This document shows, one piece after another, positions 2,812 through 48,225 of a DNA stretch of 64,000 nucleotides. The DNA is from Patescibacteria group bacterium UBA5147. GTDB taxonomy: Bacteria; Patescibacteriota; Saccharimonadia; UBA4664. Under the pieces are notes generated by a model that searched no databases, had not been told where the DNA came from, and saw only the letters and a program-made list of their open reading frames with translations. The DNA lies in the NCBI GenBank assembly GCA_002415345.1, contig DHXV01000001.1, positions 136,305-200,304 of the forward strand. Direction: 5' to 3'. Position numbers and translations under genes: made by a program. The first letter of the stretch is position 1. Each line of letters opens with the position of its first letter.

Positions 2812-2876
2812 GATAACTGAGAAACCACTGAATCCCGTCGGGTCCGGGCTTGGAATAAGGCGACCCGGAACTTATA

Positions 2877-3950: not shown

Positions 3951-3961
3951 AATAAGAAAAA

Positions 3962-4147: not shown

Positions 4148-4559
4148 CGGATTTTTTGGCGACCAGCTGCAGCTTGGAATTGATAAGATCCAGGACTTGG
4201 CGAGGGGTCATTTCGGCCTTCACCAGGTAATCGGCCCCAAAGCTGGTGGCGCGTTTGCGGTCGTCCATATTGGATGAGTTCGTCAAGACTATGATGGGCA
4301 TGGTAGAGAAATCATAGCCGTCGTTCTGTAACGCGCCCAGGACTTCCAGGCCGGACAGTTCCGGCATGTTGATATCGAAGATCGCCAGGCTGGGGTGCTC
4401 GGATTTAACCGCCTCAAAGGCGTCGCGGCCGTTGGTTTTAAGAATTACCTTGAACCCGGCGGAGGTCAGCTTAATCTCATACATGCGAGATATGAACGGG
4501 TCGTCTTCGGCAATCAGGATGATCTTGCCGACCCCAAGTTGTGCGTCATTAATTGCCAC
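4140..4559 (-). CDS. Single-domain (CheY-like) response regulator, paralog A
   Basis: Receiver motifs (ILIAEDD...IFDINMP...KAEMTPRQV). Lies directly downstream of HK 4560-6713. Paralogous to 11634-12035 and 28503-28907. Confidence 0.85.
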   Translation of the reverse strand: MAINDAQLGVGKIILIAEDDPFISRMYEIKLTSAGFKVILKTNGRDAFEAVKSEHPSLAIFDINMPELSGLEVLGALQNDGYDFSTMPIIVLTNSSNMDDRKRATSFGADYLVKAEMTPRQVLDLINSKLQLVAKKSDV

Positions 4560-6713
4560 TTATCCCTCTTTCTTGTTGACTGATGCCGGCCGGAGCGGGA
4601 GTTCGAATCCAAAGGTCGAACCTTTTCCGAGCGAGCTGCTAAACAGTATTGTACCACCTTGGTCCTCAACGACGCGCCGGGCCAGGTACAGCCCCAAACC
4701 GGTGCCGTCCGGACGGACCGTCATCGCGTTATCCGCCCTGAAGAACTTGCTGAACAGCTTCTTCTTGGCCTCTTCCGGAACACCAATGCCGGTATCGGTA
4801 ACCCTAAGGCGCACGTACTGGCCAGTTTGGTCAAGCGTTACGGTTACACTTCCTGTTTGCGTGTAATAGATGGCATTGTCGATGAAATTCATTACAACTT
4901 GACGGGTCTTGTTGTCATCGATTTCCGCCAACGGCAGTGGCAGAGCCGGGGGATCAAAAATAAGCTTAATGTTCTTGGCTGAAGCATGGGTTTCAAGCTG
5001 GCGTACCTCGTCCCTGATCATATCGACCATGTCGGTGGGCTTGGTCTGGATAATGAACCGCCCGGCACTCAGCCGGGAGACGTTCAACAGGTCCGAAATC
5101 AGGTTGACCATCCGCTCCGACGACCCAAAAGCGTAACCCGCGAATTCCGTCTGGGTTTTGCTCATGCGTCCGGCGTCCCCTTCCAGCATCATGCTCAGGT
5201 AGCCCTTGATGGTAGTCAGCGGCGTGCGCAACTGGTGAGATGCCATACTAATGAACTCGTCCTTGGCCTGATCAAGTTCCTTAAGATGGCGGTTGGCAAC
5301 GCGCAGACGGCTGGTAGCATGATCCACCCGCGCCTGCAGAGTTTGGTTGAACTCCTGGATTTCCGCGTAGGCCTTGGCATTCAAAATCGCGACCGCCAGC
5401 TGCTTGGCGATTATTTCCAAGACTTCCAGATCCTGACTGGAATAAATATCGCCAGAGAGCTTATCGCCCAGCAATAAGTAGCCGATGAATTCCTCGCGAG
5501 TTCGCAGCATTAATGATACGCGAATGCCATGCTCGTCGAGTAGTTCCTTGCGCTCACCTTCCGGTAGCTCGTCAGCCACAAGAACCGCATGTTTCAACCG
5601 TTGCAGTTCTGGCACCACCATAAGCCGCATTGGCAGCGGACCGTGATGTTCGATGCGATAGACGCGGTCGTGATTGAATACCACAATCTGTCCGAATTGA
5701 ATATTGAGCTGTTGGCAAATATCCGTGATAGACCGCTTAAGAATACGATCCAGGTCCAATTCATACACCAAAATTTTAGAAAAATTGTTGAGGACGATTT
5801 GGGAATTATAGCGATTCTGAAAGAACATTCGCGCTGTGGCATTTTCAAAGAACCGCCGCAGTGGCTGGAATGAGAAAGCTAAAGTTAAAGCGAGCACAAT
5901 ATAAATAATTTGCTGATCTTGTCTGATGGAAGCTCCAGGAAATAGCAAATTTGAAATGCTGAAAATTGCTCCCCCATACAATACGGCCAGACTCACGAGA
6001 AGCAACACGTACGCTACCGACTTTGCTACAATCGAGCGAATATCCAGAAGGTGATTTTTTAAAATCGAATATGCTATCGAGAATTCGGCAATTAGTAAAA
6101 ATAGCGGACTTAGGGGAATAAGAGCTGAGTTTTTAAATAGCAGCGGTATCACCAGGGTTGCAACTAAGGTTGCGCCAAAACTAAGCGTAATCCCATAGTT
6201 AATATAACGCAGCTGAAGTTTTAAGCGTCCAGTGGCGTGACGGTATTTTCGGTACAGAATTATCGCTCCCGAAACCAAACTAATTATTTGGAGGGCTGCA
6301 AATGATGCTATCGCTGGACCAGTCTGGATTGCAGGCTGACCATTGATGATTTCAACTCGTTGGAATATCAGACCGAGGAAACCTAGGAAGATATTTATTA
6401 CAACCCAGATGACAAAGACTACCGAGAGTTTATTTGTCAGGAATTTTTTTCCTGGAAAAGCACTCACAAATAGATACAGCAGCGACCCCGCGGGGATTGC
6501 CGAAACTAGAATGAATTTCGCCCAGAATAAAGCCGTTTCCGGAGTGTTGGAGTGTAAGGCCAGGTAATTGAATACGGGATACAATCCAATGAAGACAATA
6601 AGCAATGCAAAATAAACATTGGTTGCGCTCCGACTATTTTTTGCATAGATAAACGACGCCAGAATTAAACTGACCAATGAGGTTACGACGGCGATAATGA
6701 TGTCTAGAGTCAT
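4560..6713 (-). CDS. Multi-pass membrane sensor histidine kinase (polytopic N-terminus, GAF-like region, HisKA, HATPase_c), paralog A
   Basis: About 10 predicted TM helices in the N-terminal ~300 aa. Has an H-box (ASHQLRTPLTTIKGY) and an ATPase domain (GTGLGLYLARRVVEDQGGTI). Strongly paralogous to 24662-26896. Confidence 0.9.
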   Translation of the reverse strand: MTLDIIIAVVTSLVSLILASFIYAKNSRSATNVYFALLIVFIGLYPVFNYLALHSNTPETALFWAKFILVSAIPAGSLLYLFVSAFPGKKFLTNKLSVVFVIWVVINIFLGFLGLIFQRVEIINGQPAIQTGPAIASFAALQIISLVSGAIILYRKYRHATGRLKLQLRYINYGITLSFGATLVATLVIPLLFKNSALIPLSPLFLLIAEFSIAYSILKNHLLDIRSIVAKSVAYVLLLVSLAVLYGGAIFSISNLLFPGASIRQDQQIIYIVLALTLAFSFQPLRRFFENATARMFFQNRYNSQIVLNNFSKILVYELDLDRILKRSITDICQQLNIQFGQIVVFNHDRVYRIEHHGPLPMRLMVVPELQRLKHAVLVADELPEGERKELLDEHGIRVSLMLRTREEFIGYLLLGDKLSGDIYSSQDLEVLEIIAKQLAVAILNAKAYAEIQEFNQTLQARVDHATSRLRVANRHLKELDQAKDEFISMASHQLRTPLTTIKGYLSMMLEGDAGRMSKTQTEFAGYAFGSSERMVNLISDLLNVSRLSAGRFIIQTKPTDMVDMIRDEVRQLETHASAKNIKLIFDPPALPLPLAEIDDNKTRQVVMNFIDNAIYYTQTGSVTVTLDQTGQYVRLRVTDTGIGVPEEAKKKLFSKFFRADNAMTVRPDGTGLGLYLARRVVEDQGGTILFSSSLGKGSTFGFELPLRPASVNKKEG

Positions 6714-6722
6714 AACGGCCCC

Positions 6723-7703
6723 TTAGATAATGCGACGCGGAGTATGGTATATCTCATTATAAGCATAACCGGTTCTAAAAAAAACTTGTACTTTGCTTGG
6801 AGCGATTTTCATTACTTCTGCGAGCGCTTTGCTGGCAGGAGGGTATTCAACCATGGCTGCCATAATCGTTATTACTAATCCGTCTTTTGTAGCCTGGAGA
6901 GCAATTAATTCGAAAGCTCTTCCCGCAGCAAACCAATCCGCCGGTGAGTCATGCGGAGTAGAGATTACTCCAATTGTCGGCGAGTTCAGAATGAGGTGAC
7001 GGTCTTTTTTGCCACGAATGCTCAATATCCACGGAGCCAGACTGATTAAAGCGGGTATAACACGGGAAAAGATTGGTCGCAAACCTATCACAAACCCAGG
7101 CATCCCATCGGTGCGAGCTGTGTCGTTTGGGCGCATCCAATGAGCCAGTTCGCGGCCAAATCTGGGCGATCTGGCGATATTTCTTGCGGCATCGACATGA
7201 ATCTCAGCAATCTTGGCGATGGTAGATGATGATGATGTAAAGGCAGTTAAATTGGGAGAAAGTTGTTGGAGGGTTGCTAGCTGTTCTTTCGAAATGAGTT
7301 GACTGGAATAGTTAAGTTTATTGGAGTAGCGTTGTTTGATTGCTTGAAACAGACCATCATCCGCCGTTTTTCCGTGTTGAAATGAAATTGTAATTTCGGT
7401 TGCGTCGAGAGTTACATGAGTGTCTAAACCAAAGTAAGCTGCGGCGATTTCGATATTCTTGGCTACGGCACCAAGGCTTATCCAGCCGCCCCGACCGCTT
7501 GGATCCGAGGCCGGCAATGAGAGTTTTGGATTTAGCTTTAGACAGAGTGACCGCTCTTGGACCTCAAACTCCCAAGGCTGGGTATTGTGAACCGAAGGAG
7601 CCAAAATACCGTAACCGATTAAAAATCTAATCTGTTCTTTGATGCTAGCTTTGCGCGGAAAATTGTTTTCGTTAATATCCCAAGCCAAATAATTTGGGGT
7701 CAT
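6723..7703 (-). CDS. Nitroreductase-fold FMN oxidoreductase, Acg-family-like (two nitroreductase-like halves)
   Basis: N-terminal HNTQPWEF motif typical of the nitroreductase/Acg family. The ~326 aa length fits a tandem-lobe architecture. Overlaps the upstream gene by 4 nt. Confidence 0.55.
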   Translation of the reverse strand: MTPNYLAWDINENNFPRKASIKEQIRFLIGYGILAPSVHNTQPWEFEVQERSLCLKLNPKLSLPASDPSGRGGWISLGAVAKNIEIAAAYFGLDTHVTLDATEITISFQHGKTADDGLFQAIKQRYSNKLNYSSQLISKEQLATLQQLSPNLTAFTSSSSTIAKIAEIHVDAARNIARSPRFGRELAHWMRPNDTARTDGMPGFVIGLRPIFSRVIPALISLAPWILSIRGKKDRHLILNSPTIGVISTPHDSPADWFAAGRAFELIALQATKDGLVITIMAAMVEYPPASKALAEVMKIAPSKVQVFFRTGYAYNEIYHTPRRII

Positions 7704-8836
7704 AGCGGACCCTTGCGGATCATTTCGACTATTGCCTCTCGCTGGTCATTGTCAAGTTCCTTAACCTTCATGGTTTCCGTCAGGGACAAAAAATAACGGC
7801 CAGCCGGCAAATCTTGACCCAAGCTAAGGCGACGAATCAGGAACGCGCCAATTCCCCCGTCCATAATAACCGCACTCGCAATTTGAGGCCGACCAACGAG
7901 CGTACGGTTAATTTGTATCAATGAGGCGAGAGCACGGGTTGGAACATACTTTTCACCGACCAGCTCCATAGCGTAACGCTGTTTGGCGCTCTCTGTTATC
8001 GGTTGACTCAAAATATCTTCAGGCAGTGATCCGAGCAGCCCGTGGAAGAGCTCGGACTTGGGGTCAAGATCATACCGCTCGATATCGATAAGAATGTTGT
8101 CGCCAAGACTGGTGAGCATAAGCACTGGTATTCCAAGCTCCCGAGCGGCAATTCGCAAGCGGATTTTCATTTCAAAGTCATCTATTTCATCAAAGACGGC
8201 AACCGGTTTCGGTGTTCCAAGGAACTGCGTCATTGTCGTTCCGGTTAGCCGACCCAGAAACGACAGCTTTAGGTAGGGATTAAGCTCCCACAGCTGTTGA
8301 GCTAACACCTCTTGCTTCGATAAACCTAGTTGGTGAATGCCAGCGCGGAGGCGGTTTAGATTACACGTCTCAAGTACATCATCGTCACTGAGTCGCAACG
8401 TCCTAATGCCATGTTGGGCCAGGCCCATAGCAATCCCGTTGCCCACCGATAATCCGGCAATACTTACCCTTACTTCACCCAACGTGACCTGTTCATCCGC
8501 AGTGACTAGATTCTGATTGCGGTTGGAGCGGAGGCGCTCAAAATCATCCTGCGCAACCATATGAATCAATTGACCGCTCCAAGGCAAATAGACCCAATTA
8601 CCAACCAAATCAGGTTGGTCGCCGAGCCTCTGGGCCACAAACGCCTTCTGTTGCTCTAGAAAATCTGGTTCCCGGAGCTGCTCAGGATTAAGAATTTCAA
8701 ACAGCTCAGCCACCTGACTGGCAATAATGTCACGTTGCTTCCAGACCGGCTTATCCTGTCGAAGTTTTTCGAGGTCCATTTGGCCATACGAACCCGCTGT
8801 TAGGATTAGCGGTGTTGGGATCATTTCTTGATCCAC
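7700..8836 (-). CDS. E1-like (ThiF/MoeB/MccB-type) adenylyltransferase-fold protein with ~120 aa N-terminal extension
   Basis: Rossmann GxGxxG (IAGLSVGNGIAMGLAQHGI) followed by a DDDVLETCNLNRL motif typical of E1/ThiF; N- and C-terminal extensions. Confidence 0.6.
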   Translation of the reverse strand: MDQEMIPTPLILTAGSYGQMDLEKLRQDKPVWKQRDIIASQVAELFEILNPEQLREPDFLEQQKAFVAQRLGDQPDLVGNWVYLPWSGQLIHMVAQDDFERLRSNRNQNLVTADEQVTLGEVRVSIAGLSVGNGIAMGLAQHGIRTLRLSDDDVLETCNLNRLRAGIHQLGLSKQEVLAQQLWELNPYLKLSFLGRLTGTTMTQFLGTPKPVAVFDEIDDFEMKIRLRIAARELGIPVLMLTSLGDNILIDIERYDLDPKSELFHGLLGSLPEDILSQPITESAKQRYAMELVGEKYVPTRALASLIQINRTLVGRPQIASAVIMDGGIGAFLIRRLSLGQDLPAGRYFLSLTETMKVKELDNDQREAIVEMIRKGPL

Positions 8837-10350
8837 TTCTGCTTCGTCCCCGGCATAAAGTGAGTTACATGTTCATAGTCCCAAAATACCAACTTCGGGC
8901 GAATCTTGTCGCCGTACTCTTCGTATGTACTACGGAATTCGGAATTATCGTGTAGCAATCGAGCCATGACGGCCTCCATCAGCCTGGCCGAAAACTCCGG
9001 AGTATTTTCGGTTTCGGGTTTGAGCTCAAAATTAATTATTAATTTCTGGCGGGCTTTGGTATCGAAATCAACGGTCATGGTGAACTTGCCTGTTAGCTCA
9101 TGGGCGAAGGTGTCGGCGGAAACAACGTGCCGAATTGTCTCAGGGTAAACTTGAAACGCATAGAATGAGACCGAAAAGTCGCTTCGCTCATAGACGTACA
9201 CAAAGGGCAGGTTCCAAATGGTTTCAATTCCTGCTTCCTCGGCCATAGTCCGCAAGTCGAGCCCGTTATCGGAAAACTTCTGCTCCATCTGCGCCAACGT
9301 CACGATGCCGCCATGGTCTTTGAGGTCGTAGCGAATCAGCGGAATACCGCTTGGGGCCGAACAAAAGAGGTTTTGTCCGTCGGCTTCAAAGAAAAATTGC
9401 TCGGGTATGTATTGTGCTAAGGTGGGAAGCTTGGTTGCCTGTCCGAAAATATCCTGATAAAGTTTGGGATTTGTAAGCGCAATTCGACGAATCAGGATGG
9501 CTACAGGAGTTTCGTGGGCCATCGTACCTAAGTCGACCGTGCCATAATGGTTAAGGGTACTCGTCAGAGGGTCATCGATACCGGTCTTGGCGCAAATATA
9601 GTTTCGAAATTCTTCATTAAACCCCTCAGCCGAAAAGACAAAGCCGAGCTTGTAGTCTTTCCAGTTCAGACCAGCGCGGATGCCATCATCGATAATATCT
9701 TTTAAAAATGGCGCATACGAGCCAATAATCACCTGGTCATAATCGTGCCCCAAGTTCTGGACCGCTTTAATGACTTCGGCTTTGTTAATTCCGGGGGTAA
9801 TAATACTAAGGTCATAATTACCTCGCTCCCCCACCCGTCGAATAGCTTCATAGGTAAAGAGGCCACCAATCCATGCCCCCATAGGAAAAGCGACAATATA
9901 GAGCGTGCTTCGCTCATGAATCTTGAAATTATTTCTTAGGTACAGTTCGGCCGAAAGCGCGTATTGATCGTCTTGGACGCTCGTTCGAGGGAAATAGAAC
10001 GGCTCACCAGTCGATCCTGAAGTCGTGGAAATAATCCAACTATGCCCATTTAAACTCCCGCCCCAAACCATCTGGGCTCGGGTAAATCGTCGCAAATACG
10101 AATCCTTATCTAGCAGCGGGAAGTCGGCTAGCGCTTTTTTACTGACCTCAAGAAGATTCAGGCCTGCCTCTTGAAGAATAATTTTATAGGCAGGAACACT
10201 GATACTCATTGCAATAGCCTGATTCAGTGCGCGTCGATAGCCACGCTCAATCCATTCAGCCTCAGGAACCTGAACTAAAAGAGATTCAAGAGCAACCGGA
10301 TTTATCTCTTCGAGGGCTACTTCGGTATCTACTGCGTTATTAGCTATCAT
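8821..10350 (-). CDS. Phenylacetate-CoA ligase / F390-synthetase (CapK) family adenylate-forming enzyme
   Basis: AMP-binding core motif TSGSTGEPF; 509 aa; overlaps the downstream E1-like gene by 16 nt. Confidence 0.65.
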   Translation of the reverse strand: MIANNAVDTEVALEEINPVALESLLVQVPEAEWIERGYRRALNQAIAMSISVPAYKIILQEAGLNLLEVSKKALADFPLLDKDSYLRRFTRAQMVWGGSLNGHSWIISTTSGSTGEPFYFPRTSVQDDQYALSAELYLRNNFKIHERSTLYIVAFPMGAWIGGLFTYEAIRRVGERGNYDLSIITPGINKAEVIKAVQNLGHDYDQVIIGSYAPFLKDIIDDGIRAGLNWKDYKLGFVFSAEGFNEEFRNYICAKTGIDDPLTSTLNHYGTVDLGTMAHETPVAILIRRIALTNPKLYQDIFGQATKLPTLAQYIPEQFFFEADGQNLFCSAPSGIPLIRYDLKDHGGIVTLAQMEQKFSDNGLDLRTMAEEAGIETIWNLPFVYVYERSDFSVSFYAFQVYPETIRHVVSADTFAHELTGKFTMTVDFDTKARQKLIINFELKPETENTPEFSARLMEAVMARLLHDNSEFRSTYEEYGDKIRPKLVFWDYEHVTHFMPGTKQKWIKK

Positions 10351-30374: not shown

Positions 30375-30465
30375 AAAGTCACACCTCCACAGGCGGTCAG
30401 CTTATGAGTTTTTTATTCATTTGTTTATTATACCAAACAAAATGACCCATACTGACCTTTTTAAA

Positions 30466-30510
30466 CATAAGTGCTATGGAGGGCCATCGTGCTTGCTGTT
30501 GCAATTGAAA
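30466..30510 (-). repeat. tRNA-Lys 3'-end-derived direct repeat, copy R1
   Basis: Minus-strand reading is CAATTGCAACAGCAAGCACGATGGCCCTCCATAGCACTTATGTTT. It starts at the stop codon of 30511-31068 and has no terminator hairpin. Confidence 0.8.
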
Positions 30511-31068
30511 TTAGTTTTCTAACCCAATTATTCTAACAATCTCATCAATTTCAACTCTTTTCGGAGTATCTATATTAATTACCTTACCGATTTGTAGTGC
30601 TGCATATTTATCGGGGTCTTCCGGAGCCGCATTTTCTAGATAATTTTCGCGGTCAGCATGCCCAATGTGACGCTCACCCGACTCATTGCGGCCTATGAAT
30701 CGCTGTTTTCTAGTCTCAAAATCGGTTGAGCAATATATCTCAATTACGTTCGGCTGATATCTTCCAATAAGTTCTTGCAGTCTCGGCTGGGCAAAAGATC
30801 TTTCAAATGCATTTTCAATCATCACCGATTGGCCAGCCGCCATCATGGTTTCTGCCAAGGTATATACAAAATCGTTGGATACTTTTCCGAGAGTTCTTGA
30901 CCATTCCCTATCATTGATACCTAAGTTATCAAATAGAAATTCTTTAATCGTGTCTTTAGCGATCAGGGGTATGCCAAGCTTTGTCGATAACGGTTTGGCG
31001 ATTGTAGTTTTTCCAGAAGCGGGTAAGCCGTTGATAATAATCAAATTCATACGGATATCATAAAACAA
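30511..31068 (-). CDS. P-loop NTPase, small kinase-like (AAA_33/zeta-toxin-like fold)
   Basis: Walker A GLPASGKTT near the N-terminus; ~170-185 aa. The start may be the internal MNLII. Confidence 0.65.
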   Translation of the reverse strand: MFYDIRMNLIIINGLPASGKTTIAKPLSTKLGIPLIAKDTIKEFLFDNLGINDREWSRTLGKVSNDFVYTLAETMMAAGQSVMIENAFERSFAQPRLQELIGRYQPNVIEIYCSTDFETRKQRFIGRNESGERHIGHADRENYLENAAPEDPDKYAALQIGKVINIDTPKRVEIDEIVRIIGLEN

Positions 31069-31146
31069 AAAAGGCTCCCGGAGGAGTTTTTTTAAGCATA
31101 AGTGATATGGATGGCCATCGTAGTAGCTATTGCTACTGAATTACGG
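31067..31146 (-). repeat. tRNA-Lys 3'-end-derived direct repeat R2 plus terminator hairpin
   Basis: Core at 31092-31146 (..CAGTAGCAATAGCTACTACGATGGCCATCCATATCACTTATGCTTAAAAAAA) begins 25 nt after the stop of 31171-31674. Hairpin GGCTCCCGGAGGAG plus a T-run at 31067-31092. Confidence 0.8.
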
Positions 31147-31170
31147 ATACACCGAAGGCCAACTTCGCTG

Positions 31171-31674
31171 TTACGGGTGAGCATTTTCTCTTGTAAAGAA
31201 CGCGTATGACTCGGTGTTGTACTCTTTGAGTGGCCATACCGCCATCCCCTGCTCCTGCCAAAGCGCAAACTCTGCAACGCCCGCTTCCATCGTAAAACGA
31301 CTGCAAACTGTGCAATATGGTTCCCCGGCCTTCGTCAATTCCCCATCCCCATTCACACGCATAAAGTACAATCGCGAACCGGCCAGCTTATCGGGATTAC
31401 GTTTACTGGCATCTAACACGGCTCGCCACTCGGCATGAATACAGCAGGTTTTATCAAACAACGGCTTGAGCGTTTGGGTGTACTCACGTGAGCAAGTTCG
31501 GCTAGCTTCATCATCAAGCGGCGGCCCGTTGTAGCCTTCGCCGATAATCACCCCATCGCTTACGATGACCGAGCCGCAGCGTGCCTTTAGGCACTTGGCC
31601 TGGCGCGCAATTCGAGCAGCTTCGTTAAACCAGTTTTCTGCATCTTTGACTTCGTTTTCGGCAAGAAACTTCAT
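31171..31674 (-). CDS. CMP/dCMP-type zinc deaminase family protein
   Basis: HAE zinc/catalytic motif (CCIHAEWRA) and PCxxC (PYCTVCS); N-terminal GSVIV..GEGYN. The listed ORF start at 31761 reads through the repeat/terminator; the real start is MKFLAE at 31674. Confidence 0.65.
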   Translation of the reverse strand: MKFLAENEVKDAENWFNEAARIARQAKCLKARCGSVIVSDGVIIGEGYNGPPLDDEASRTCSREYTQTLKPLFDKTCCIHAEWRAVLDASKRNPDKLAGSRLYFMRVNGDGELTKAGEPYCTVCSRFTMEAGVAEFALWQEQGMAVWPLKEYNTESYAFFTRENAHP

Positions 31675-31692
31675 TAAGTAATCATAGCAAAC

Positions 31693-31773
31693 AAAAAAGA
31701 CCTCCGAAGTAGTCTTTTTAAGCATGAGTGCGATGGAGGGCCATTGTGCTGGCTGTTGCAACTGAAACTACTG
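31693..31773 (-). repeat. tRNA-Lys 3'-end-derived direct repeat R3 plus terminator hairpin
   Basis: Core at 31719-31773 (CAGTTGCAACAGCCAGCACAATGGCCCTCCATCGCACTCATGCTTAAAAAG). AAAAGAC...GTCTTTT hairpin at 31693-31719. Confidence 0.8.
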
Positions 31774-31965
31774 ATTTCAGAGCATTTATCGCTCAGCTAG
31801 GGTAGGTTGCAGGGACGAATATCGTTATCAATACATTCCTTAAGTTCCTGTATTTGTACAAACTGCTTATAGTCATTCGTATATACTGGTTACGCTTATA
31901 ATGATCCAAATCCCAAATTTGGATGACATCCGGCAAATTGGCTAAAGCTAAGCTCATGATATCCT

Positions 31966-32631
31966 TTGCATATGAACGATCAACTATCGCGATACCAGGC
32001 TTTCGAAACATTTAAAGAGGTGCCACGCATCGACGTGAAGCGCTGCTTTGTTGCGGCACAATATTTTGGGACCTTGGAGCGCGGGAATACTCGCTATCTA
32101 CCCAAGTTGACGCGCCAAGATTTTGTTGATCGGCTGCAAACTTCAAAAGATTATGCTCAAACAATTCTTGAACCAGAACTGGATGAGAGAATTTTGGAGG
32201 GAAACTATCCAAAACGGTTGAAGATGTATAACGCGTGTACCTGGTATATAGGTGTGGTATTCGCCGATGAAGTTGGAGTATGGAAAGGCGCGGGCGGCCT
32301 CCCAGTGGCCTGGACGTACGGTTCTTTGGAGGATACGGCACGCTATGTGAGCCATGCCCTCCGGAGCAACGAAACGATACTCCCTGCACGGGCTAGGCGC
32401 GTGATACCCCGCATCACCCTTAACCTCAATCTTATTGAACAGGAGCCTTATCTTTATCCAATCATTGCCCCTGGAGCAACTATGGGCCGCGGTCTCAATG
32501 GACGCCCTTACACCCACTTTGAGCTCATGAATGGTGATATTGAGGATGGCTGCATGCGCTCGATTGCCTTGGCTCATCAGGGGCGGTCAAAGTTTCTTGC
32601 ATATGTTGGAATGAAAAATATAAAAAAATAA
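31966..32631 (+). CDS. Hypothetical protein (221 aa), plus-strand gene inside the cassette array
   Basis: Long ORF with no recognised domain, convergent to its neighbours. Followed by hairpin TAACGGCTCTACAGAGCTGTTA at 32628-32649. Confidence 0.45.
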   Translation: MHMNDQLSRYQAFETFKEVPRIDVKRCFVAAQYFGTLERGNTRYLPKLTRQDFVDRLQTSKDYAQTILEPELDERILEGNYPKRLKMYNACTWYIGVVFADEVGVWKGAGGLPVAWTYGSLEDTARYVSHALRSNETILPARARRVIPRITLNLNLIEQEPYLYPIIAPGATMGRGLNGRPYTHFELMNGDIEDGCMRSIALAHQGRSKFLAYVGMKNIKK

Positions 32632-32704
32632 CGGCTCTACAGAGCTGTTATTTCATAATGATTCCTGGAGGCCATCGTAGATGTTACCGCAACTAAAATT
32701 TGCG
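32628..32704 (-). repeat. tRNA 3'-end-derived direct repeat R4 (chimeric Lys/His type) plus bidirectional hairpin
   Basis: Minus reading: TAGTTGCGGTAACATCTACGATGGCCTCCAGGAATCATTATGAAATAACAGCTCTGTAGAGCCGTTATTTTTTT. The tail matches the flank of tRNA-His at 47925-47965. Confidence 0.7.
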
Positions 32705-33004
32705 AAGCAGCAGAGTAACTACTATTCCCAGCTCAATAATAAATAGCGGTATGTACGTAATTACTAATGGCTTTTCTTTATGCTTGACGCTGAATATTGC
32801 GAATATGCCAGCTTGCAATGCATAGAAAGACCACGTAACCAGAGACACTCCCTGTAAGTTACTCGCTGTTACGACGTTATAGAGCTGGGGCAGGGTAACT
32901 ATAGGCATACAAATGCCTACTACTGTGGTGAGTTTGTCTAGGTTCTTATTTTGAGTTTTTCTTATATACATTGCCCACAGTATAGCAAACAAAAAGGCTC
33001 CCAA
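32693..33004 (-). CDS. Small membrane protein (103 aa, TTG start)
   Basis: 3 predicted TM helices; repeat R4 begins at its stop codon. Confidence 0.4.
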   Translation of the reverse strand: MGAFLFAILWAMYIRKTQNKNLDKLTTVVGICMPIVTLPQLYNVVTASNLQGVSLVTWSFYALQAGIFAIFSVKHKEKPLVITYIPLFIIELGIVVTLLLRKF

Positions 33005-33010
33005 GCGGAA

Positions 33011-33062
33011 GTCTTTTTATCATAAGTGCTATGGAGGGCCATCGTGCTTGCTGTTGCAACTG
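33011..33062 (-). repeat. tRNA-Lys 3'-end-derived direct repeat R5 (closest match to the tRNA flank)
   Basis: CAGTTGCAACAGCAAGCACGATGGCCCTCCATAGCACTTATGATAAAAAGAC; identical to R6/tRNA-Lys from GATGG to CTTATG. Confidence 0.8.
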
Positions 33063-33154
33063 GAATACAAACAAGTGCCCCCTCCATTTGCCAATTATAT
33101 AATCAAGTTTCAACTACCAGCGCAATCAACCTTTGATACCAATTTTTTGATATC

Positions 33155-35834: not shown

Positions 35835-36046
35835 TTCGACTTCCTTAACCGGTCGGTACTGCGTTTCCCGACTCAGCCCCCTTCACTCACGGAAGCAAGT
35901 AGAGAGAGCTGATCGCGAACGCCATAAGGAGTATACCTTAAGTGGTAAGAATTATCCGTGATGTCGAATCGGCGTATTTTAGACTTACAAAATTTCGACT
36001 AATTTTCCACCTAGTTGAAAAGTTATTGAAACAACTTAGGCAAAAC

Positions 36047-36068
36047 AAAAAACCCTTACGGGTTTTTT
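36047..36068 (-). terminator. Intrinsic terminator after tRNA-Lys (AAAACCCGTAAGGGTTTTTT)
   Basis: Perfect 7-bp stem, GTAA loop and a T-run on the minus strand, 15-36 nt after the tRNA CCA end. Confidence 0.7.
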
Positions 36069-36082
36069 AAGCATAAGTGCTA

Positions 36083-36159
36083 TGGAGGGCCATCTGGGAT
36101 TCGAACCCAGGACACGGGGATTAAGAGTCCCCTGCTCTAACCAACTGAGCTAATGGCCC
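36083..36159 (-). tRNA. tRNA-Lys (anticodon CTT), CCA encoded
   Basis: Manual cloverleaf: acceptor GGGCCAT/ATGGCCC, D-arm GCTC-AGTTGGTTA-GAGC, anticodon arm GGGGA-CTCTTAA-TCCCC, T-arm CTGGG-TTCGAAT-CCCAG. Confidence 0.9.
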
Positions 36160-36229
36160 GAAATGTGAAACAGTCATAATCCTACCCGAAACAGCACTTT
36201 TAGGCAAGAACTATGAGGGGAATAATTAC

Positions 36230-37903: not shown

Positions 37904-38010
37904 GGAATCGGTCCTTCCGACGAGTAGGGAGATTGGTTTTCAAGGTATGGGGCTACTATAGTACGAAATATACCGAATACAAGCCAAATTAATCTAAAAA
38001 TAATTGCTCT

Positions 38011-43196: not shown

Positions 43197-43718
43197 TTAG
43201 AACTTTACGGGTATCGCCAGGCTATCGTCATTCTTGGGTAAGCCCGAGGGGTTATCCTTATGGAGAACCAGCGTTCCAACACCGCTTGGTGTCCCGCTGA
43301 ATTCCAATGTCGCCGTAAACGGAAACATTGCATCCGTCATCCAGTCGCCCTGCAATGTTGCCGGGGCTTGAGCAATTACTTTCCCGCCAGCATCCTTGAG
43401 CTCAATCGGAAATTGAGCCTCAAATGACCAATTACCGGGAACCTGACCTACGATATGCAAAGGACTGGACGCTCTTGCGCCAGCCAAAGGGGTATATACC
43501 GAGATGTTGACGCCTTTGTCCGATTTGTAGCTGTAAATCGGCTGCCTTGATGCCGCTTCGGTGGCTTTTTGCACCTGCACCTGCAAGTCATCTTTTTGTC
43601 GGCTGAGTTCCTGGACTTGAGTTTGCTGCCAAACGTAAACACTAAACCCAACGGCTATCAGCAATAGGGCAACGATAAGGCCAACCAAAAGGCGTTTCAT
43701 GGTAATCCCCGCTTTCAT
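43197..43718 (-). CDS. Secreted protein with Gmad2-like Ig domain
   Basis: Signal/TM, a coiled segment, then the pattern SPLHIVGQVPGNWSFEAQFPIEL..G.VIA...A...MTD..PF.ATLEF. Confidence 0.45.
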   Translation of the reverse strand: MKAGITMKRLLVGLIVALLLIAVGFSVYVWQQTQVQELSRQKDDLQVQVQKATEAASRQPIYSYKSDKGVNISVYTPLAGARASSPLHIVGQVPGNWSFEAQFPIELKDAGGKVIAQAPATLQGDWMTDAMFPFTATLEFSGTPSGVGTLVLHKDNPSGLPKNDDSLAIPVKF

Positions 43719-43781
43719 ATTCTGAATCTATTGTATTACCAGCAGCGAAATTTTGGCTATGATGAGTGTCACTAGGAAATA

Positions 43782-44237
43782 CTAGGCATCGAGTTGGGTT
43801 TCCATATGCTTGAGCAACCGTCCATTCAGTTCCTCGAGTTTCATCAAGGCTTTCTGAAACTCGGTAATATCAATGGCCACGGTGTAGATACCGACCACCT
43901 CGCCGTCCTCTTTAATCGGCTCAACTCGAATATCGTTATAGTAGATATCACCTTCATCACCACCTTTAAGAGTGCTTTTGAACATTTCCCTGACGCCCTT
44001 TTTACCTGCCAAGGGCCGTTTCTTGATAGCAGTTAGCCTCTCAGCTTCGCTTGCGGGCAACCAATCGGCATCGGTCTTACCGATCAAATTTTCGCTTGCC
44101 ATGCCAGGATGGGTATTGAAAAATTGGGTATAACACAAATCTAAATCCTGCTGCGATATCGCCACGCCCGAGTTACGCAGTGATTTTTCCAAGACCGACC
44201 GACTATCCTTGATCTCCGTAAGGAGTTTCTTATCCAT
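43782..44237 (-). CDS. Stand-alone PAS-domain protein
   Basis: 151 aa, PAS-like core, no output domain. Confidence 0.5.
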   Translation of the reverse strand: MDKKLLTEIKDSRSVLEKSLRNSGVAISQQDLDLCYTQFFNTHPGMASENLIGKTDADWLPASEAERLTAIKKRPLAGKKGVREMFKSTLKGGDEGDIYYNDIRVEPIKEDGEVVGIYTVAIDITEFQKALMKLEELNGRLLKHMETQLDA

Positions 44238-44427
44238 TTAAATTCTCCAGTGCAACAAAACTAAATACTCGGCATGAACTATGACACTTCGAATTTAACT
44301 GATAATTTTCAGTCTATCATCAGACAATGTGCCAAAATTGTAATAAGCGCGAATCAATTAAAGGTCACCCTCAAGCCTTTTGTGAGCAGTTAGAAGAGGT
44401 CACTAGTGAAATGAGCATTACACTCGG

Positions 44428-45498
44428 CTATCCGGCTCGCGCTTGTAGCTCTTTGATCTCCTGTTTTAGCTCAACCATCTTTAGCTCGCGGGCAACCATA
44501 AAACCGTTCAATTCCTCAACTTCTTTAATTCGCACTTCAAGTTGCTTCTCCGCCTGTTTGGTATTGGTAATGTCATGAAAACTCCATACCCGGCCAATTA
44601 TTTTGTCATTAACGCGTTGAGGGACAGAATTTCGCTCGAACGCTTTGCCATCCTTAAGCTCAAATACCTCCGTAGTCCTGGCATCAGGATTGTCGTGCAG
44701 ATCTTCTACTTTCTTCATAAAACCAATGGGGTCAGTAAGCTGATTGGACACGAATTGAATAACCTTCATCACATCATGCGGGTACATAATCTCTTGCGGG
44801 ATATTCCACATGGAGGTGTACTGCTTGTTATAGAGGATAATGTTCCAGTCCGAGTCGGCCACCAGTATCCCATCCGACATTGATTCGATGGTGGTGTTAA
44901 CCAATGAGAGACTTTCTTCTACGGTGACTTGCGCAGTTATTCGATCGAGAGTTTCCGCGAACTTAATACCCAAAATATTGATTACGCGCTCTTCCTCGAA
45001 CGAGAATTCTCCGGCGTACATTCGGCAACATAAGAGGATAAGTTCGGGCTGCGCGCTTGGGATAACTGGTATGAACAGAGCAGATTTTACCGATAGATGC
45101 CGAACCATCTCAGGCAGGGTACCATCCCCCGGTTGCTTGAGCCGCACGGGCTTACGATCCTTATAAATGTTCTCGAAAACACTCCCCTCAATTTGCCCTG
45201 CCAGCTCGCTAGCCTCGGATCGGGAAAGGCCAATGCCCTCAAGGGTTGTATAGCTTAGGCCTGCCTTGTCGACCTCAATGAGAATACCAACGTCAACTGA
45301 GAACATTTTACAGATACTGGCCACAAACGTACTGCTAGCCTTGGCCTTATCCTCGATTCCTGAAAGTTCCGAGCTTATCTGGTAAAGGACCGATACCGAG
45401 TTAAGTGTGGTTTGGAGTTCATCCGTGCTCTCCTTAATCTCCTCTTTGAGACTAAGAATCTCGTTCTGAGCCGCGGCCATTTGCTGCTGGATATCCAT
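44428..45498 (-). CDS. Coiled-coil + GAF/PAS sensor protein without output domain
   Basis: N- and C-terminal heptad-like segments flank GAF-like and PAS-like (..DGILVADSDWNIILYNKQY..) regions. Confidence 0.5.
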   Translation of the reverse strand: MDIQQQMAAAQNEILSLKEEIKESTDELQTTLNSVSVLYQISSELSGIEDKAKASSTFVASICKMFSVDVGILIEVDKAGLSYTTLEGIGLSRSEASELAGQIEGSVFENIYKDRKPVRLKQPGDGTLPEMVRHLSVKSALFIPVIPSAQPELILLCCRMYAGEFSFEEERVINILGIKFAETLDRITAQVTVEESLSLVNTTIESMSDGILVADSDWNIILYNKQYTSMWNIPQEIMYPHDVMKVIQFVSNQLTDPIGFMKKVEDLHDNPDARTTEVFELKDGKAFERNSVPQRVNDKIIGRVWSFHDITNTKQAEKQLEVRIKEVEELNGFMVARELKMVELKQEIKELQARAG

Positions 45499-45516
45499 TG
45501 TTTAACCTATCTATTA

Positions 45517-46707
45517 TTATTCCGGAAGGACGTAGACGCCGCAGGTCTTGTTATAAAGGGCCGGCGGGCCTCCCTTTTCGATGCCGATTTCGCCAAAGGA
45601 AAAGAAGCCTATCATCGGCACGTCCCCACCCAGGCGGGATTCTATATTGGAAATCTCAGTCTGGGCATCATCGCCCAGAAATAGCAGCCTGGAAACGCAA
45701 TCGGCGACAAGTATTAACGCCGGAGGCTTACCTTCCAGCGCCTCCTTGGCCTCATTGGCGGCCTCGGTCGAAGCCAGCAGTATGGATTCTTTTGACCCTT
45801 TCATGATTCTCACGATGGTGTTCTCCGGCACTTCTGAAACAAAGGTAATAGAGTTGTCCTCGATTGATGCCGATAAAGGGTCGCGCACGACATACTCTCC
45901 GGTTGCCATGGGAATACCAAGCGGGTGACCGCTGGCAAAACCGTAAAACTTAGAGAAATCGAAACCCTTAATGTCCTCTTCTAGGTAATCCATATAGAGT
46001 TCAAGAGCCGGCTGGCCGTCAAGCTCTTTGACCGTCTTGCCCTCAGCTTTAGTGACCACCAGGTTACGTCCAGTCGGCTCCCAACCATGCCGTAACGAGA
46101 TGCCCTGAGGCGAATCGGACACAATCAAGGCGCCCGTGATTGCATCACGGTGTACCTGGTCGTTCATAATCTGAACGGATTTTTTGAAGTGCAGATTATC
46201 GGCTGAGCCACCACCAAAGAAGCGGAAAAAACTGCCAAACTCACGGAAAGCTTCATAGAGCGCATCCGTGACCACTCCTTTGGTCATCGAGGCATCGGCA
46301 AAGACCAACAATACCTGATTTTGCGGGTGTCCCTTGGGAACCGATAATGTCGCTGCCAGATTTCCCAAATGCCTGCCGGCCTCTTTGGCATCTTGGCTCA
46401 AATTGTCGCTGGAGCCGACTCTCACCTTCAAGGTATCGGACTGGATTATTGCCACGCCCAAGCCATCGGGATAGATTTTTCCATTACAAATAAGACTTGG
46501 CGCAGTGCACCCAACCAAAGGAGTGTCACCAGTAACTGAGCGTATCCCATCAATGGCATTTTGTTCGTCGTATTGCTCGGTCATAAACACGACCGCCAAC
46601 GGAAAAGGGCCCTTTAACTGGCCCTTGGCCGCACGGGCCGCTTCTATGCCGGCACGATGAGAATCGGCGGTATTTTGACTAAGTCCTACGCCCGCAATCG
46701 TTTTCAA
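45517..46707 (-). CDS. FIST-domain signalling protein (FIST_N + FIST_C)
   Basis: 396 aa with an N-terminal ..AGVGLS....AG.EAARAA.. pattern and an overall FIST profile. Confidence 0.6.
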   Translation of the reverse strand: MKTIAGVGLSQNTADSHRAGIEAARAAKGQLKGPFPLAVVFMTEQYDEQNAIDGIRSVTGDTPLVGCTAPSLICNGKIYPDGLGVAIIQSDTLKVRVGSSDNLSQDAKEAGRHLGNLAATLSVPKGHPQNQVLLVFADASMTKGVVTDALYEAFREFGSFFRFFGGGSADNLHFKKSVQIMNDQVHRDAITGALIVSDSPQGISLRHGWEPTGRNLVVTKAEGKTVKELDGQPALELYMDYLEEDIKGFDFSKFYGFASGHPLGIPMATGEYVVRDPLSASIEDNSITFVSEVPENTIVRIMKGSKESILLASTEAANEAKEALEGKPPALILVADCVSRLLFLGDDAQTEISNIESRLGGDVPMIGFFSFGEIGIEKGGPPALYNKTCGVYVLPE

Positions 46708-46839
46708 AGTATCTCACCCCACAATTATTATCTCTATCTTGAACCGTAGCACGTTTAGGTATCGCTTAGTATGGGTAACCCCTTGAATCGACTGTCAGGT
46801 TTCGCGAAATACCTTGGCAGACCTACCCAGGCAAACTGA

Positions 46840-47370
46840 CTATTTTGCCGCTTCGAATGCTCCCTTCAGCGGAGCAATATCAAGTTTAACCATTGGCATC
46901 ATGGCCTCCATCAATGCCTTTTTCTGCTGAGGCGTGGCCGATGAATCGCTCATCATTTCGCCTAAAGCCGTTGGAATAATCTGCCAGGTTATACCAAACT
47001 TATCGGTGATCCAGCCGCACTGCTGAGGTGCTCCCCCGTCCAATAACTTGTCCCAGACTCCGTCTAATTCTTCCTGAGTATCTAATTCGACTACAAAAGA
47101 TATCGCACCCGTCATCTCAAACTGCGGGCCCCCGTCCAAGCACATGAACTCTTGCTCGTTAAGCTCAAAAACCCCTGTGAGTACCTTGCCTACCAGCTCG
47201 TTTTCGCCTGGTATGCCCTGGTTTCCGGCATATCGCTCGATGTGGGTTATTCTCGAATTCCTGAACGTCGAGACGTAATAATTCATGGCCTCTTCGGCAT
47301 TACCCTGGAACCAAATACACGGTTTGATCGTTTCCATAATCCAATCCCCAATATCGGCGGATTGTAACAT
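46840..47370 (-). CDS. VOC-superfamily protein, PhnB/3-demethylubiquinone-methyltransferase-like (DUF) family
   Basis: Canonical start region M.TIKPCIWFQGNAEEA found at an internal ATG (47337), so the real start is probably 47337. Confidence 0.7.
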   Translation of the reverse strand: MLQSADIGDWIMETIKPCIWFQGNAEEAMNYYVSTFRNSRITHIERYAGNQGIPGENELVGKVLTGVFELNEQEFMCLDGGPQFEMTGAISFVVELDTQEELDGVWDKLLDGGAPQQCGWITDKFGITWQIIPTALGEMMSDSSATPQQKKALMEAMMPMVKLDIAPLKGAFEAAK

Positions 47371-47417
47371 GCGAATAAATAAAAAAACTATGGATAATAT
47401 ATATATTGGAGCAAGAT

Positions 47418-47452
47418 TTTATTCGAATAATTGCTATGGGGCCGTATCGTGA
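47418..47452 (-). repeat. Diverged copy (R7) of the tRNA-3'-end-derived repeat family
   Basis: Minus reading: CACGATACGGCCCCATAGCAATTATTCGAATAAAA, versus CACGATGGCCCTCCATAGCACTTATGCTTAAAA in R1-R6. Confidence 0.55.
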
Positions 47453-47628
47453 ACGACATCAGAGCTATTTGGCAGAGCCGCGACATTGTAATTTATTACT
47501 AATTCTTGTATATAGTACCCTAACGGATCTGCTTCGCTCATTTACACGCCTCACAACCACTTGCTGAATTATCTGGCTCAACCATTCTTACTAGCGACTA
47601 CCAAGTTACCTACCAAGAGGAGAAAACA

Positions 47629-47835
47629 GTGTTAAGATTCCGTGGTTTGCCTCAGAGTATAAAGAGAGAGGCCATTATTAGAATGTTAATAATTGGAGTC
47701 ATTCTCTCCCTGTCTGCACCCACGATTTTACGTGCAGTCCTTTATTTTTTCGTATTCTCTATTTTCATTGGGCACACTTTCCTTAGCGGGGCTCAAGCTA
47801 TGAAAGAAGAGATGAATCCATCGAGGCCTAAGTAA
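47629..47835 (+). CDS. Small hypothetical membrane protein (68 aa)
   Basis: 2 TM; followed by hairpin GCCACCTTTGGTGGC plus a T5 run at 47881-47900. Confidence 0.3.
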   Translation: MLRFRGLPQSIKREAIIRMLIIGVILSLSAPTILRAVLYFFVFSIFIGHTFLSGAQAMKEEMNPSRPK

Positions 47836-47880
47836 CCTGTCAACATACCGAGGGACGGCGGCCTTTCTACCGTCCCAATT

Positions 47881-47900
47881 GCCACCTTTGGTGGCTTTTT
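47881..47900 (+). terminator. Intrinsic terminator (GCCACC-TTT-GGTGGC-TTTTT)
   Basis: Seen in the sequence after the 47629-47835 ORF. Confidence 0.5.
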
Positions 47901-47928
47901 ATATATCAAATATCTTGAATAACAAAAT

Positions 47929-47948
47929 AACGGCTCTGTGAAGCCGTT
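47929..47948 (-). terminator. Intrinsic terminator after tRNA-His (AACGGCT-TCACAG-AGCCGTT + T-run)
   Basis: 7-bp stem on the minus strand followed by ATTTTGTTATT. Confidence 0.5.
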
Positions 47949-47965
47949 ACTTGATATATAATTCC

Positions 47966-48043
47966 TGGGGCGAGTGATGGGGCTTGAACCCACGACCTAC
48001 GGTACCACAAACCGTCGCTCTAACCAACTGAGCTACACCCGCC
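47966..48043 (-). tRNA. tRNA-His (anticodon GTG) with extra 5' G(-1), CCA encoded
   Basis: G-1 + acceptor GCGGGTG/CACTCGC, discriminator C, anticodon arm ACGGT-TTGTGGT-ACCGT, T-loop TTCAAGC. Confidence 0.85.
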
Positions 48044-48103
48044 ATGTTGAACCAGTTAAATTTAACCGTTTTGAGGGAAAAAGTCTAGGCTCATGATGAT
48101 TAC

Positions 48104-48180: not shown

Positions 48181-48225
48181 ATGAGGGCATTATACAAGAA
48201 ACGACCCCACTGGGCCGAATTCTAT

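Follow-up and report, generated by a model that had tools for sequence, protein, structure and literature searches.

Why does the DNA directly 3' of a tRNA gene differ from one genome to the next while the genes on either side of it stay the same? This question is raised by the tRNA-His(gtg) locus of Patescibacteria group bacterium UBA5147, which lies in a stretch of 64,000 nucleotides (assembly GCA_002415345.1, contig DHXV01000001.1, positions 136,305 to 200,304), referred to here as the window. The source organism comes from soil or permafrost and belongs to the Saccharimonadia (Saccharibacteria/TM7), and the same DNA is present in JGI, ENA, Logan and NCBI (GCA_002429365.1) assemblies, all from one study. 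An earlier note on this DNA had described a tRNA-anchored locus next to tRNA-His, with a small membrane-protein open reading frame (ORF), a repeat copy designated R7 and a PhnB/VOC-like gene, and had linked it to an array of gene cassettes at tRNA-Lys. On balance, our analysis favors the view that, in this Saccharimonadia lineage, site-specific insertion has recurred at the 3' end of tRNA-His, with R7 as an older junction that was displaced. The features on which this view depends are as follows.

47966-48042, minus strand: tRNA-His(gtg), intact, with its CCA encoded (ARAGORN; Rfam tRNA, 65.7 bits)
47918-47965, minus strand: tRNA-His trailer and intrinsic terminator, a "GGAAT-type" junction module whose trailer starts GGAATTAT
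47393-47917, no strand: lineage-specific segment, without nucleotide homology to the matching intervals of L017/L112, L018, L032 and L118 (blastn)
47417-47451, minus strand: R7, CACGATACGGCCCCA|TAGCAATTATTCGAATAAAA, with its CCA-equivalent at 47439-47437
46840-47392, minus strand: VOC/PhnB-like gene and its promoter (PF06983, E = 9e-40)

Variable content downstream of tRNA-His

tRNA-His is the final gene of a Pro-Gly-Arg-His tRNA cluster. Relatives were identified through PhnB homologues with 70-86% identity (L017/L112, from JGI 3300015194, with L017 on contig Ga0167666_1000310; L018; L032), and L118 was found through the HU protein, which is identical between the window and L017. The tRNA-His sequence was 100% identical in L017 and L018, and the printed L118 sequence reads alike. 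The five genomes, whose tRNA-His is identical or almost so, carried five different contents directly after it, and PhnB followed in four of the five.

Window: tRNA-His, 68-aa ORF, PhnB
L017/L112: tRNA-His, NUDIX gene (convergent), 37-aa, 110-aa and M16 peptidase genes, PhnB, VIT1, ABC ... tRNA-Arg, tRNA-Arg, tRNA-Lys
L018: tRNA-His, 95-aa ORF, PhnB
L032: tRNA-His, 178 nt without an ORF, PhnB
L118: tRNA-His, DUF2975 gene

By blastn, homology to the window on the tRNA side stopped at 47966 (L112), 47924 (L018) and 47918 (L118), and homology around PhnB stopped at 47392 (L112) and 47372 (L018). Since homology covers the tRNA cluster on one side and PhnB with its promoter on the other, and nothing between them, the variable unit is confined to about 47393-47917/47965. 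The variation that the earlier note had suggested looking for among relatives over 46840-47960 was thus found, as variation in content, in this interval and not in PhnB, which is conserved. tRNA-His is the anchor of the variable unit and the proposed target of insertion.

The clearest trace of insertion was observed in L032, in which the 3' end of tRNA-His (CAATCCCCATCATTCGCCCCA) is duplicated directly, with 20 of 21 nt matching, 178 nt downstream (score 37; shuffle maximum 20). Both copies of the tRNA-His end have their own terminator, and the distal copy ends 106 nt before the PhnB ATG. The ORF-less 178-nt unit (L032 9717-9872) holds a terminator and a perfect hairpin (CATGAACAGTCAGTGACTGTTCATG), and may be either a minimal mobile unit or what is left of a deleted element. 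In L017, intact tRNA-His is directly followed by TAGCACTTATTC and a terminator, which constitutes a Lys-type trailer (CCA|TAGCACTTAT...; E = 0.036 against the Lys-repeat profile described below). A second junction in this genome, CTCGCCACAA|GGAATTAT and a terminator (longer reading, CTCGCCACAA|GGAATTATTATAATGATAACGGCTCTACGGAGGCGTTATTTTTG), lies 762 nt beyond tRNA-His and aligns with the window tRNA-His junction at 81%, including 9 nt of the tRNA (E = 2e-6). Because the second junction matches the window junction including tRNA nucleotides, a NUDIX segment appears to have been inserted at the CCA end of L017 tRNA-His, with displacement of the old end, trailer and terminator. A degenerate tRNA-His 3' half of ~40 nt upstream of the internal L017 junction was considered and rejected as not significant; the last 9 nt and the trailer alone align.

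Junction modules shared with the tRNA-Lys locus

The tRNA-Lys locus of the window consists of tRNA-Lys(ctt) and an array in which four repeats, R1, R2, R3 and R5 (30432-33064), set single-gene segments apart, together with a hybrid junction, R4.

36042-36159, minus strand: tRNA-Lys(ctt) (36083-36159) and its junction R6, CCA|TAGCACTTATGCTTAAAAAA and a hairpin (E = 3e-11)
32987-33064, minus strand: Lys-array repeat R5
32619-32697, minus strand: hybrid junction R4, in which a P arm and core of Lys type (…CTACGATGGCC-TCCA) are fused to a trailer and terminator of His type, GGAATCATTATGAAATAACAGCTCTGTAGAGCCGTTATTTTT
31689-31766, minus strand: Lys-array repeat R3
31063-31140, minus strand: Lys-array repeat R2
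30432-30509, minus strand: Lys-array repeat R1 (profile E = 1e-25 to 1e-27 for R1, R2, R3 and R5)

Each of the four repeats comprises a hairpin between an A-run and a T-run, a TAGCAC trailer, the last 12 nt of tRNA-Lys and a conserved non-tRNA arm of ~21 nt. R6 is the reference for the TAGCAC-type trailer that is common to R1, R2, R3, R5, the L017 tRNA-His junction and R7. The non-tRNA arm (31113-31140 and 33037-33064, minus strand) contains a mini-hairpin (R5, TTGC/GCAA; R2, AGTAGC/GCTACT) that shows one compensatory pair change between the two, and the Lys core ATGG-CCCT-CCAT is itself an inverted repeat. The mini-hairpin and the inverted-repeat core could be recombinase-binding elements.

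R4 combines parts of both loci. Its core is the tRNA-Lys acceptor end (TGGAGG-CCATCG), with one C missing, in register with a His-type trailer; it matched the Lys-repeat profile with E = 0.0035 and had a fold z-score of -6.7. A convergent gene of 221 aa (31966-32631, plus strand) is likewise ended by the R4 terminator. The tRNA-His flank matched R4 at 79% over 38 nt in the repeat finder and with a Smith-Waterman score of 49, whereas the next unrelated site in the window scored 28. A His-trailer profile, built from four tRNA-His trailer junctions of other genomes and no window sequences, had no more than two matches in the window, at the tRNA-His junction (E = 1.4e-6) and at R4 (E = 6e-5 and 1.3e-4). 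These results bear out the earlier proposal that the His flank is fused into R4 at the tRNA-Lys array.

Two junction types were distinguished by these comparisons. The TAGCAC type occurs at tRNA-Lys, in the Lys-array repeats, at L017 tRNA-His and in R7. The GGAAT-terminator type, with a AACGGCTCT...GAGCCGTT hairpin, follows tRNA-His in three genomes (window, L018 and L118) and is also represented by the internal junction of L017 and by R4 of the Lys array. As both junction types are present at both tRNA loci, the loci appear to share one segment pool or one recombination system. The earlier claim that the two are linked through exchange of attachment site (att)-like sequences is supported as far as the shared junctions go (R4, and the Lys-type trailer of L017); exchange itself is inferred, and no recombinase was found among the genes checked. 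A search for the His-type module in the 64-kb window and 12 loci from other genomes (~0.2 Mb) returned only the tRNA-His junctions, the internal L017 junction and R4. Within that ~0.2 Mb, the module does not behave as a dispersed terminator or as a repeat resembling repetitive extragenic palindromes (REP) or miniature inverted-repeat transposable elements (MITE).

A trailer motif, G-N-A-A-T-Y-A-T, was observed directly after the CCA of many tRNA genes in the window and in L017, L018 and L118. Its sites in the window are 36160-36229, 37950-38010, 48043-48103 and 48181-48225, and its forms are GTAATTAT, GCAATTAT, GGAATTAT and GTAATCAT. The motif may be a lineage-specific signal for 3' processing or termination. 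Because many tRNA genes of the lineage carry it after CCA, similarity in the linker is a general tRNA feature, and only the AACGGCTCT...GAGCCGTT hairpin is specific to the His module.

R7 and the proposed insertion mechanism

In the mechanism that we propose, the ancestral order would have been tRNA-His, its trailer and terminator, ~100 nt, and PhnB. Small segments without a recombinase gene of their own would insert at the last few nucleotides of tRNA-His, with cutting and joining performed by a site-specific recombinase acting in trans, which would most likely be an integrase of the tyrosine or serine class with its gene elsewhere. Each segment would supply a replacement CCA end, trailer and intrinsic terminator, so that tRNA-His would stay intact and terminated, and the prior tRNA end and trailer would be pushed toward PhnB and then decay; R7 would have arisen in this way. 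The resident insert would run CCA to CCA from 47966 to 47437 (529 nt), with the 68-aa ORF and its own terminator as its one gene. The predicted empty site is ...CTCGCCCCA|TAGCAATTATTCG, a precise tRNA-His|TAGCAATTAT junction, and the predicted circular junction is ...GTCGTTCACGATACGGCCCCA|GGAATTATATATC. The junction sequences are precise enough to design tests by polymerase chain reaction (PCR).

R7 was assessed with an independent query, consisting of the last 14 nt of tRNA-His and 27 nt of trailer from the sister genome L017. R7 was the top match to this junction in the whole window on both strands (score 33), with GCCCCATAGCAATTATTCGAATAA aligned against GCCCCATAGCACTTATTCTTATAA at 21 of 24 positions, ungapped, over 47419-47442. 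The same query scored 32 at the true tRNA-Lys junction and 23 at the next place outside tRNA junctions and Lys-array repeats, and none of 300 block-shuffled windows reached 33 (maximum 32). R7 has the correct strand and falls within the gap of 574 nt that separates tRNA-His from PhnB, and its CCA-equivalent (47437) is 99 nt before the PhnB ATG, compared to 106 nt for the duplicated end in L032. CCA-anchored identity of R7 was 21/28 to the L017 tRNA-His junction, 19/28 to the window tRNA-Lys junction and 17/28 to the L017 tRNA-Lys junction, and did not exceed 14/28 for 24 other tRNA junctions.

A number of results weigh against this mechanism, some of them through R7 itself. Eighteen other tRNA-junction queries gave off-target maxima of 21-31, one of them reaching 31. 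Because control queries reach this level, the R7 score is only moderately significant, alone worth a p of roughly a few percent, to which its strand and location in the 574-nt gap add ~0.005. R7 was not significant against the profile of R1, R2, R3 and R5 (3.4 bits, E = 3.5, rank twelfth), and as a query its best matches, R5 (29) and R1 (27), were not above background (26, 25). It shares only 6-7 nt with tRNA-His (GGCCCCA), and a search of the window with the tRNA-His 3' half returned no significant copy (14, compared to a shuffle mean of 16). The terminator hairpin that is present at all other junctions is absent from R7 (fold z = -0.67). The trailer motif also lies between adjacent tRNA genes with nothing inserted, and part of the att-like similarity is lineage-wide. 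The His hairpin stem is conserved across species, while the Lys-array hairpins differ from segment to segment; a conserved stem would also be compatible with a terminator native to tRNA-His and insertions placed just past it. Evidence against such a native terminator comes from R4, where the module sits away from any tRNA-His.

Genes and assemblies provided further points on this side. No integrase or recombinase domain is on record for the checked window genes (~4.8-57.4 kb on identical contigs, and ten ORFs), and the recombinase is hypothetical for that reason. The relatives were checked in part, and no recombinase was present in the precomputed domain hits of L017 and L018 or in nine selected L032 ORFs. 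Scans of viral contigs with the Lys and His junctions, the tRNA 3' halves and two Lys-array proteins gave no matches. No presence/absence polymorphism or excised circle was seen among assemblies of the species, and since all carrying contigs come from one study, they hold no presence/absence information within the species. Among the 14 loci first compared, 11 were 100% identical to the window and the others slightly different (L003, 99.8%; L113, 99.5%).

Taken together, these results make it likely that R7 is a real but eroded former junction between a tRNA-His end and a TAGCAC-type trailer. It is better described as a decayed junction of this kind than as a copy of the Lys cassette repeat. 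The R7 that the earlier note had placed at ~47418-47452 was therefore retained as the best match to the L017 junction and dropped as a Lys repeat copy; the similarity of R4 to the His flank was above background, and that of R7 to the Lys repeats was not, the outcome that the note had named as refutation.

The competing explanation that survives best, although we regard it as unlikely, is a recombination hotspot without site-specific integration. Content between two conserved anchors, PhnB and the tRNA cluster with a native terminator, would then change by homologous recombination between flanks after natural transformation, or by illegitimate insertions and deletions, and R7 would be a chance resemblance within AT-rich intergenic sequence. 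L018 and L118 homology passes through the tRNA-His terminator and stops just past it (47924 and 47918), as for a native terminator. The lack of a significant match of R7 to either the Lys-repeat profile or the tRNA-His 3' half, the control query that reached 31 by chance, and the lack of a recombinase among the checked window genes also favor a hotspot. The window encodes type IV pilus and type II secretion system (T2SS)-like genes, which are compatible with DNA uptake in Saccharibacteria. A hotspot leaves unexplained, however, the 20/21 duplication of the tRNA-His end in L032, the second tRNA-end and trailer junction in L017, the His-type trailer and terminator fused exactly at CCA in the tRNA-Lys array, and the fact that the best off-target match to the L017 junction falls in the 574-nt gap in the right orientation. 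Homologous recombination between flanks may account for some of the differences in content, but not for the duplicated ends in L032 and L017.

Contigs of independent assemblies were observed to end at junction positions. UBA contig DIZM01000022 ends at 47439, the R7 CCA, and L113 ends at 47966, the 3' end of tRNA-His. L007 ends at 47995, 30 nt inside tRNA-His, as expected for k = 31, which we take to be the assembly setting, and a 286-kb JGI contig ends inside the 221-aa gene (32328). These ends are suggestive and could represent population forks, but co-occurring species that share an identical tRNA would produce them too. Two other contig ends were rejected as evidence of a population fork and are artifacts: L011 terminates in a Nextera adapter, and L116 is a scaffold mis-joined at an N-gap inside tRNA-His.

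The PhnB gene and the remaining alternatives

The PhnB ORF was listed as 176 aa (46840-47370, minus strand, ATG at 47370). A total of 1366 homologues were identified at E<=1e-30, mostly of 165 aa and many of them labelled Saccharibacteria; the close homologues are labelled Candidatus Saccharibacteria or Saccharimonadales. Because the homologues are 165 aa and conservation begins at the ATG at 47337, the real coding sequence is almost certainly 46840-47337, with 165 aa. The separation of ~50 nt between R7 and PhnB given in the earlier note holds only from the mechanically assigned ORF start, and is replaced by the 99 nt from the real ATG. In a promoter alignment, an extended -10 promoter, TGtTACAAT at 47369-47361, was found to be kept in relatives. 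PhnB and its 55-nt promoter (46840-47392) are conserved, and lie beside the tRNA-His cluster in four genomes (window, L017, L018 and L032). PhnB is thus best interpreted as a conserved part of the backbone at the distal limit of the variable site, not as cargo, and its inclusion in the variable unit, as the earlier note implied, was abandoned.

We consider it quite unlikely that PhnB is instead an old, now fixed cassette of the tRNA-His site, with R7 as its own upstream junction and not simply a scar left by the 68-aa insert. The order of R7, 99 nt and a PhnB gene co-directional with the tRNA does resemble the Lys-array segments, and homology between the window and L017 is limited to PhnB and 55 nt, broken on either side. 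PhnB homologues also occur in unrelated contexts, in L021 and, beside tRNA-Asn, in L026. Against this, PhnB lies between the tRNA cluster and the VIT1/ABC genes in both the window and L017, and its position beside tRNA-His in L018 and L032, with 70-86% identity, looks like vertical descent. Nor was a junction-like sequence present 3' of PhnB (46708-46839, by eye), where the repeat finder returned no repeat family. A third explanation, that the loci are alike through function and not mobility, by way of a required 3' trailer and terminator or local duplication with no exchange between them, is very unlikely: G-N-A-A-T-Y-A-T after CCA at many tRNA genes, including between adjacent tRNAs, and the good predicted bidirectional terminators of the modules agree with it, but R4 and R7 are not beside tRNA genes and cannot be kept by a tRNA-processing constraint, R4 matches the His module over the linker, 12-bp stem and loop-flanking bases (E = 6e-5) while other window terminators do not, and its tRNA-Lys acceptor end in register with a His trailer is the form of a recombinant junction, not of a free-standing terminator.

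Between PhnB and VIT1, the window carries a block of FIST, PAS_7, PAS_4 and Gmad2 genes (43197-46707). This block is missing from L017, in which PhnB abuts VIT1 and a rhodanese gene is inserted further along instead. A scan of genome contigs with the FIST protein was set aside; its sole relative was UBA5145 (71%), in which the PhnB side is not syntenic.

Contents of the resident insert

The sole cargo of the insert is an orphan membrane-protein ORF, which is followed by two hairpins.

47852-47905, plus strand: two hairpins 3' of the 68-aa ORF (terminator scan, fold z-scores)
47629-47835, plus strand: 68-aa ORF that starts with GTG, 7 nt after a GAGGAG ribosome-binding site, and encodes two hydrophobic segments

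The 68-aa ORF had no family match in Pfam or NCBIfam, and a single other cluster, 96% identical, was found among 5.8e9 and 1.84e9 proteins; this homologue is carried by an 18.4-kb Logan contig. It is predicted to be a membrane-protein gene. The second hairpin, at 47881-47895 (plus strand), reads GCCACCTTTGGTGGC with the T-run TTTTTATATA; it is terminator-like (fold z = -3.2) and convergent with the tRNA-His terminator, whose stem at 47952-47925 (minus strand) reads AACGGCTTCACAGAGCCGTT and is followed by a T-run (fold z = -4.6; terminator scan). The small membrane ORF with its own terminator between R7 and tRNA-His, and the convergent terminators beside tRNA-His, were thus found as the earlier note had described them.

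The interval between the 68-aa ORF and R7 is 176 nt of non-coding DNA. Within it, 47485-47514 is AT-rich and has promoter-like hexamers on either strand, TTGTAA-17-TATATA on the plus strand, directed at the 68-aa ORF, and TATACA-16-TACAAT on the minus strand, which would transcribe through R7 into PhnB. Rfam searches of the insert and of the L017 interval at permissive thresholds returned nothing meaningful and no partial tRNA.

Comparison with known tRNA-anchored systems

Insertion in tandem that displaces partial tRNA or tmRNA ends is established, as are att-flanked segments that have lost the integrase (10.1101/2020.12.28.424599, PMC3146451, PMC5704250). As in Islander-type tRNA/tmRNA islands (PMC4383910), the tRNA-His insert has an intact tRNA on one side and, on the opposite side, a repeat of the tRNA 3' end, which is clear in L032 but in the window is an eroded candidate (R7); the tRNA end is restored by the inserted DNA, and contents vary between relatives. 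The repeated tRNA fragment at the other boundary is 20/21 nt in L032 and 9 nt and the trailer in L017, and the candidate in the window consists of GGCCCCA and a trailer only. Unlike Islander-type islands, the inserts here are tiny (178-762 nt from CCA to CCA where both ends are defined), no integrase lies beside the tRNA, and the repeated part of the tRNA is 6-21 nt at tRNA-His and 12 nt at tRNA-Lys.

The ssrA islands of Dehalococcoides (PMC3146451) likewise occur in a streamlined genome as serial insertions 3' of one small-RNA gene. Each is bounded by a direct repeat of ~20 bp of the gene 3' end, some units lack integration genes, and a non-gene motif upstream of each repeat is analogous to the Lys-core arm GTTGCAACAGCAAGCAC here. 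They differ in their size (10-30 kb), in the serine recombinase module (DsiB) that many of them carry and that is absent from the units here, and in their target, the T-loop of tmRNA, where the target here is the tRNA CCA end. The cis-mobilizable elements (CIMEs) of streptococci, at tRNA-Lys and other sites (PMC5704250), are also att-flanked, without integration or transfer genes, and in tandem beside a gene 3' end. CIMEs, however, are seen as decayed integrative and conjugative elements (ICEs) or integrative and mobilizable elements (IMEs) adjoining a functional mobilizing element; no element of this kind was observed across the 64-kb window, and the units of the Lys array appear uniform, not decayed. 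The features of a CIME at the tRNA-His locus are the absence of recombination and transfer genes, a clear attL (the tRNA-His end) and a candidate attR (R7) that is eroded and only moderately supported.

The tycheposons of Prochlorococcus (10.1101/2020.12.28.424599) resemble the locus in their small streamlined genome, tRNA-adjacent islands and older integrations pushed inward; their islands also contain scattered partial tRNAs and remnants, and one element family uses several tRNA genes. Tycheposons are defined by a tyrosine recombinase and replication modules, in contrast to the single-gene units here. A tyrosine recombinase with a replication or packaging module was absent from the window and from the tRNA-His regions of relatives as checked (the L017/L018 hits and nine L032 ORFs). 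Integron arrays and clusters of attC sites lacking integron-integrases (CALINs; PMC4889954) are similar to the Lys array, not to the tRNA-His site, in having single-gene units, repeats of ~80 nt, mostly one orientation and no recombinase. The repeats here differ from those of integrons in that they lack an attC-like bulged hairpin and each holds a tRNA 3' end. Neither intI nor attI was found in the window, and the arrays abut tRNA genes instead. Attachment-site folding like that of attC was rejected, as single-stranded DNA folds of the Lys repeats and R4 consisted of three short local hairpins only; five of the six folds were unremarkable (z = +0.7 to -1.6), and the z of -4.0 for R2 came from the same short hairpins.

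The tRNA-His locus is thus a small, partly decayed, integrase-less, tRNA-anchored insertion site, and the phenomenon itself is well known. The aspects that are unusual, namely single-gene units, end modules shared by two tRNAs and a possible trans-acting recombinase in a bacterium of the Candidate Phyla Radiation (CPR), are unproven and concern chiefly the Lys array. Genomes of Saccharibacteria and other CPR bacteria are roughly 1 Mb in size. Because tRNA-anchored insertion sites in Saccharibacteria or CPR bacteria are not described in the literature searched, accessory-gene gain in the CPR is poorly documented. The His locus and the Lys array indicate that particular tRNA genes gather accessory DNA at their CCA ends, in units down to one gene, and the same end modules at two tRNA genes point to a recombination activity that could be found in complete genomes. 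A broader interpretation, which is rather doubtful and is offered tentatively, is that Saccharimonadia have an integron-like, tRNA-anchored system of gene capture, with a helper or host recombinase that recognizes several tRNA 3' ends (at least Lys-CTT and His-GTG). Single-gene segments with a CCA end, trailer and terminator but no recombinase would be shuttled between docking sites, and the tRNA-His site, R7 and hybrid R4 would be footprints of traffic between two of them.

Additional observations

The 103-aa Lys-array protein encoded at 32693-33004 (minus strand) resembles SemiSWEET transporters (NF037969, E = 1.6e-12, under the curated cut-off). The contexts of homologues of the 221-aa gene were considered and set aside, as none adjoins tRNA-His and one distant homologue lies beside tRNA-Asn. 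That homologue, 59% identical at the protein level, is directly 3' of tRNA-Asn in L026 (7794-10634), a distant relative with low G+C content; no end repeats were obvious by eye, and beyond the homologue lie two genes of VOC/PF06983 type and further small genes.

Differences were also found elsewhere in the tRNA clusters. L003/L115 (JGI 3300014820) are otherwise identical to the window over 12 kb, with 14 mismatches and 3 gaps. Nearly all of these fall in the ~60-nt spacer between tRNA-Arg(tct) and tRNA-His (48043-48103), a sharply local replacement. In L032, 6.4 kb (2525-8975) lie between tRNA-Pro and tRNA-Gly and encode two AAA ATPases and a P-type ATPase; this insert was checked for an integrase and none was found. 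In L018 (4583-5137), the tRNA cluster is rearranged, with a 99-aa membrane ORF between tRNA-Gly and tRNA-Pro.

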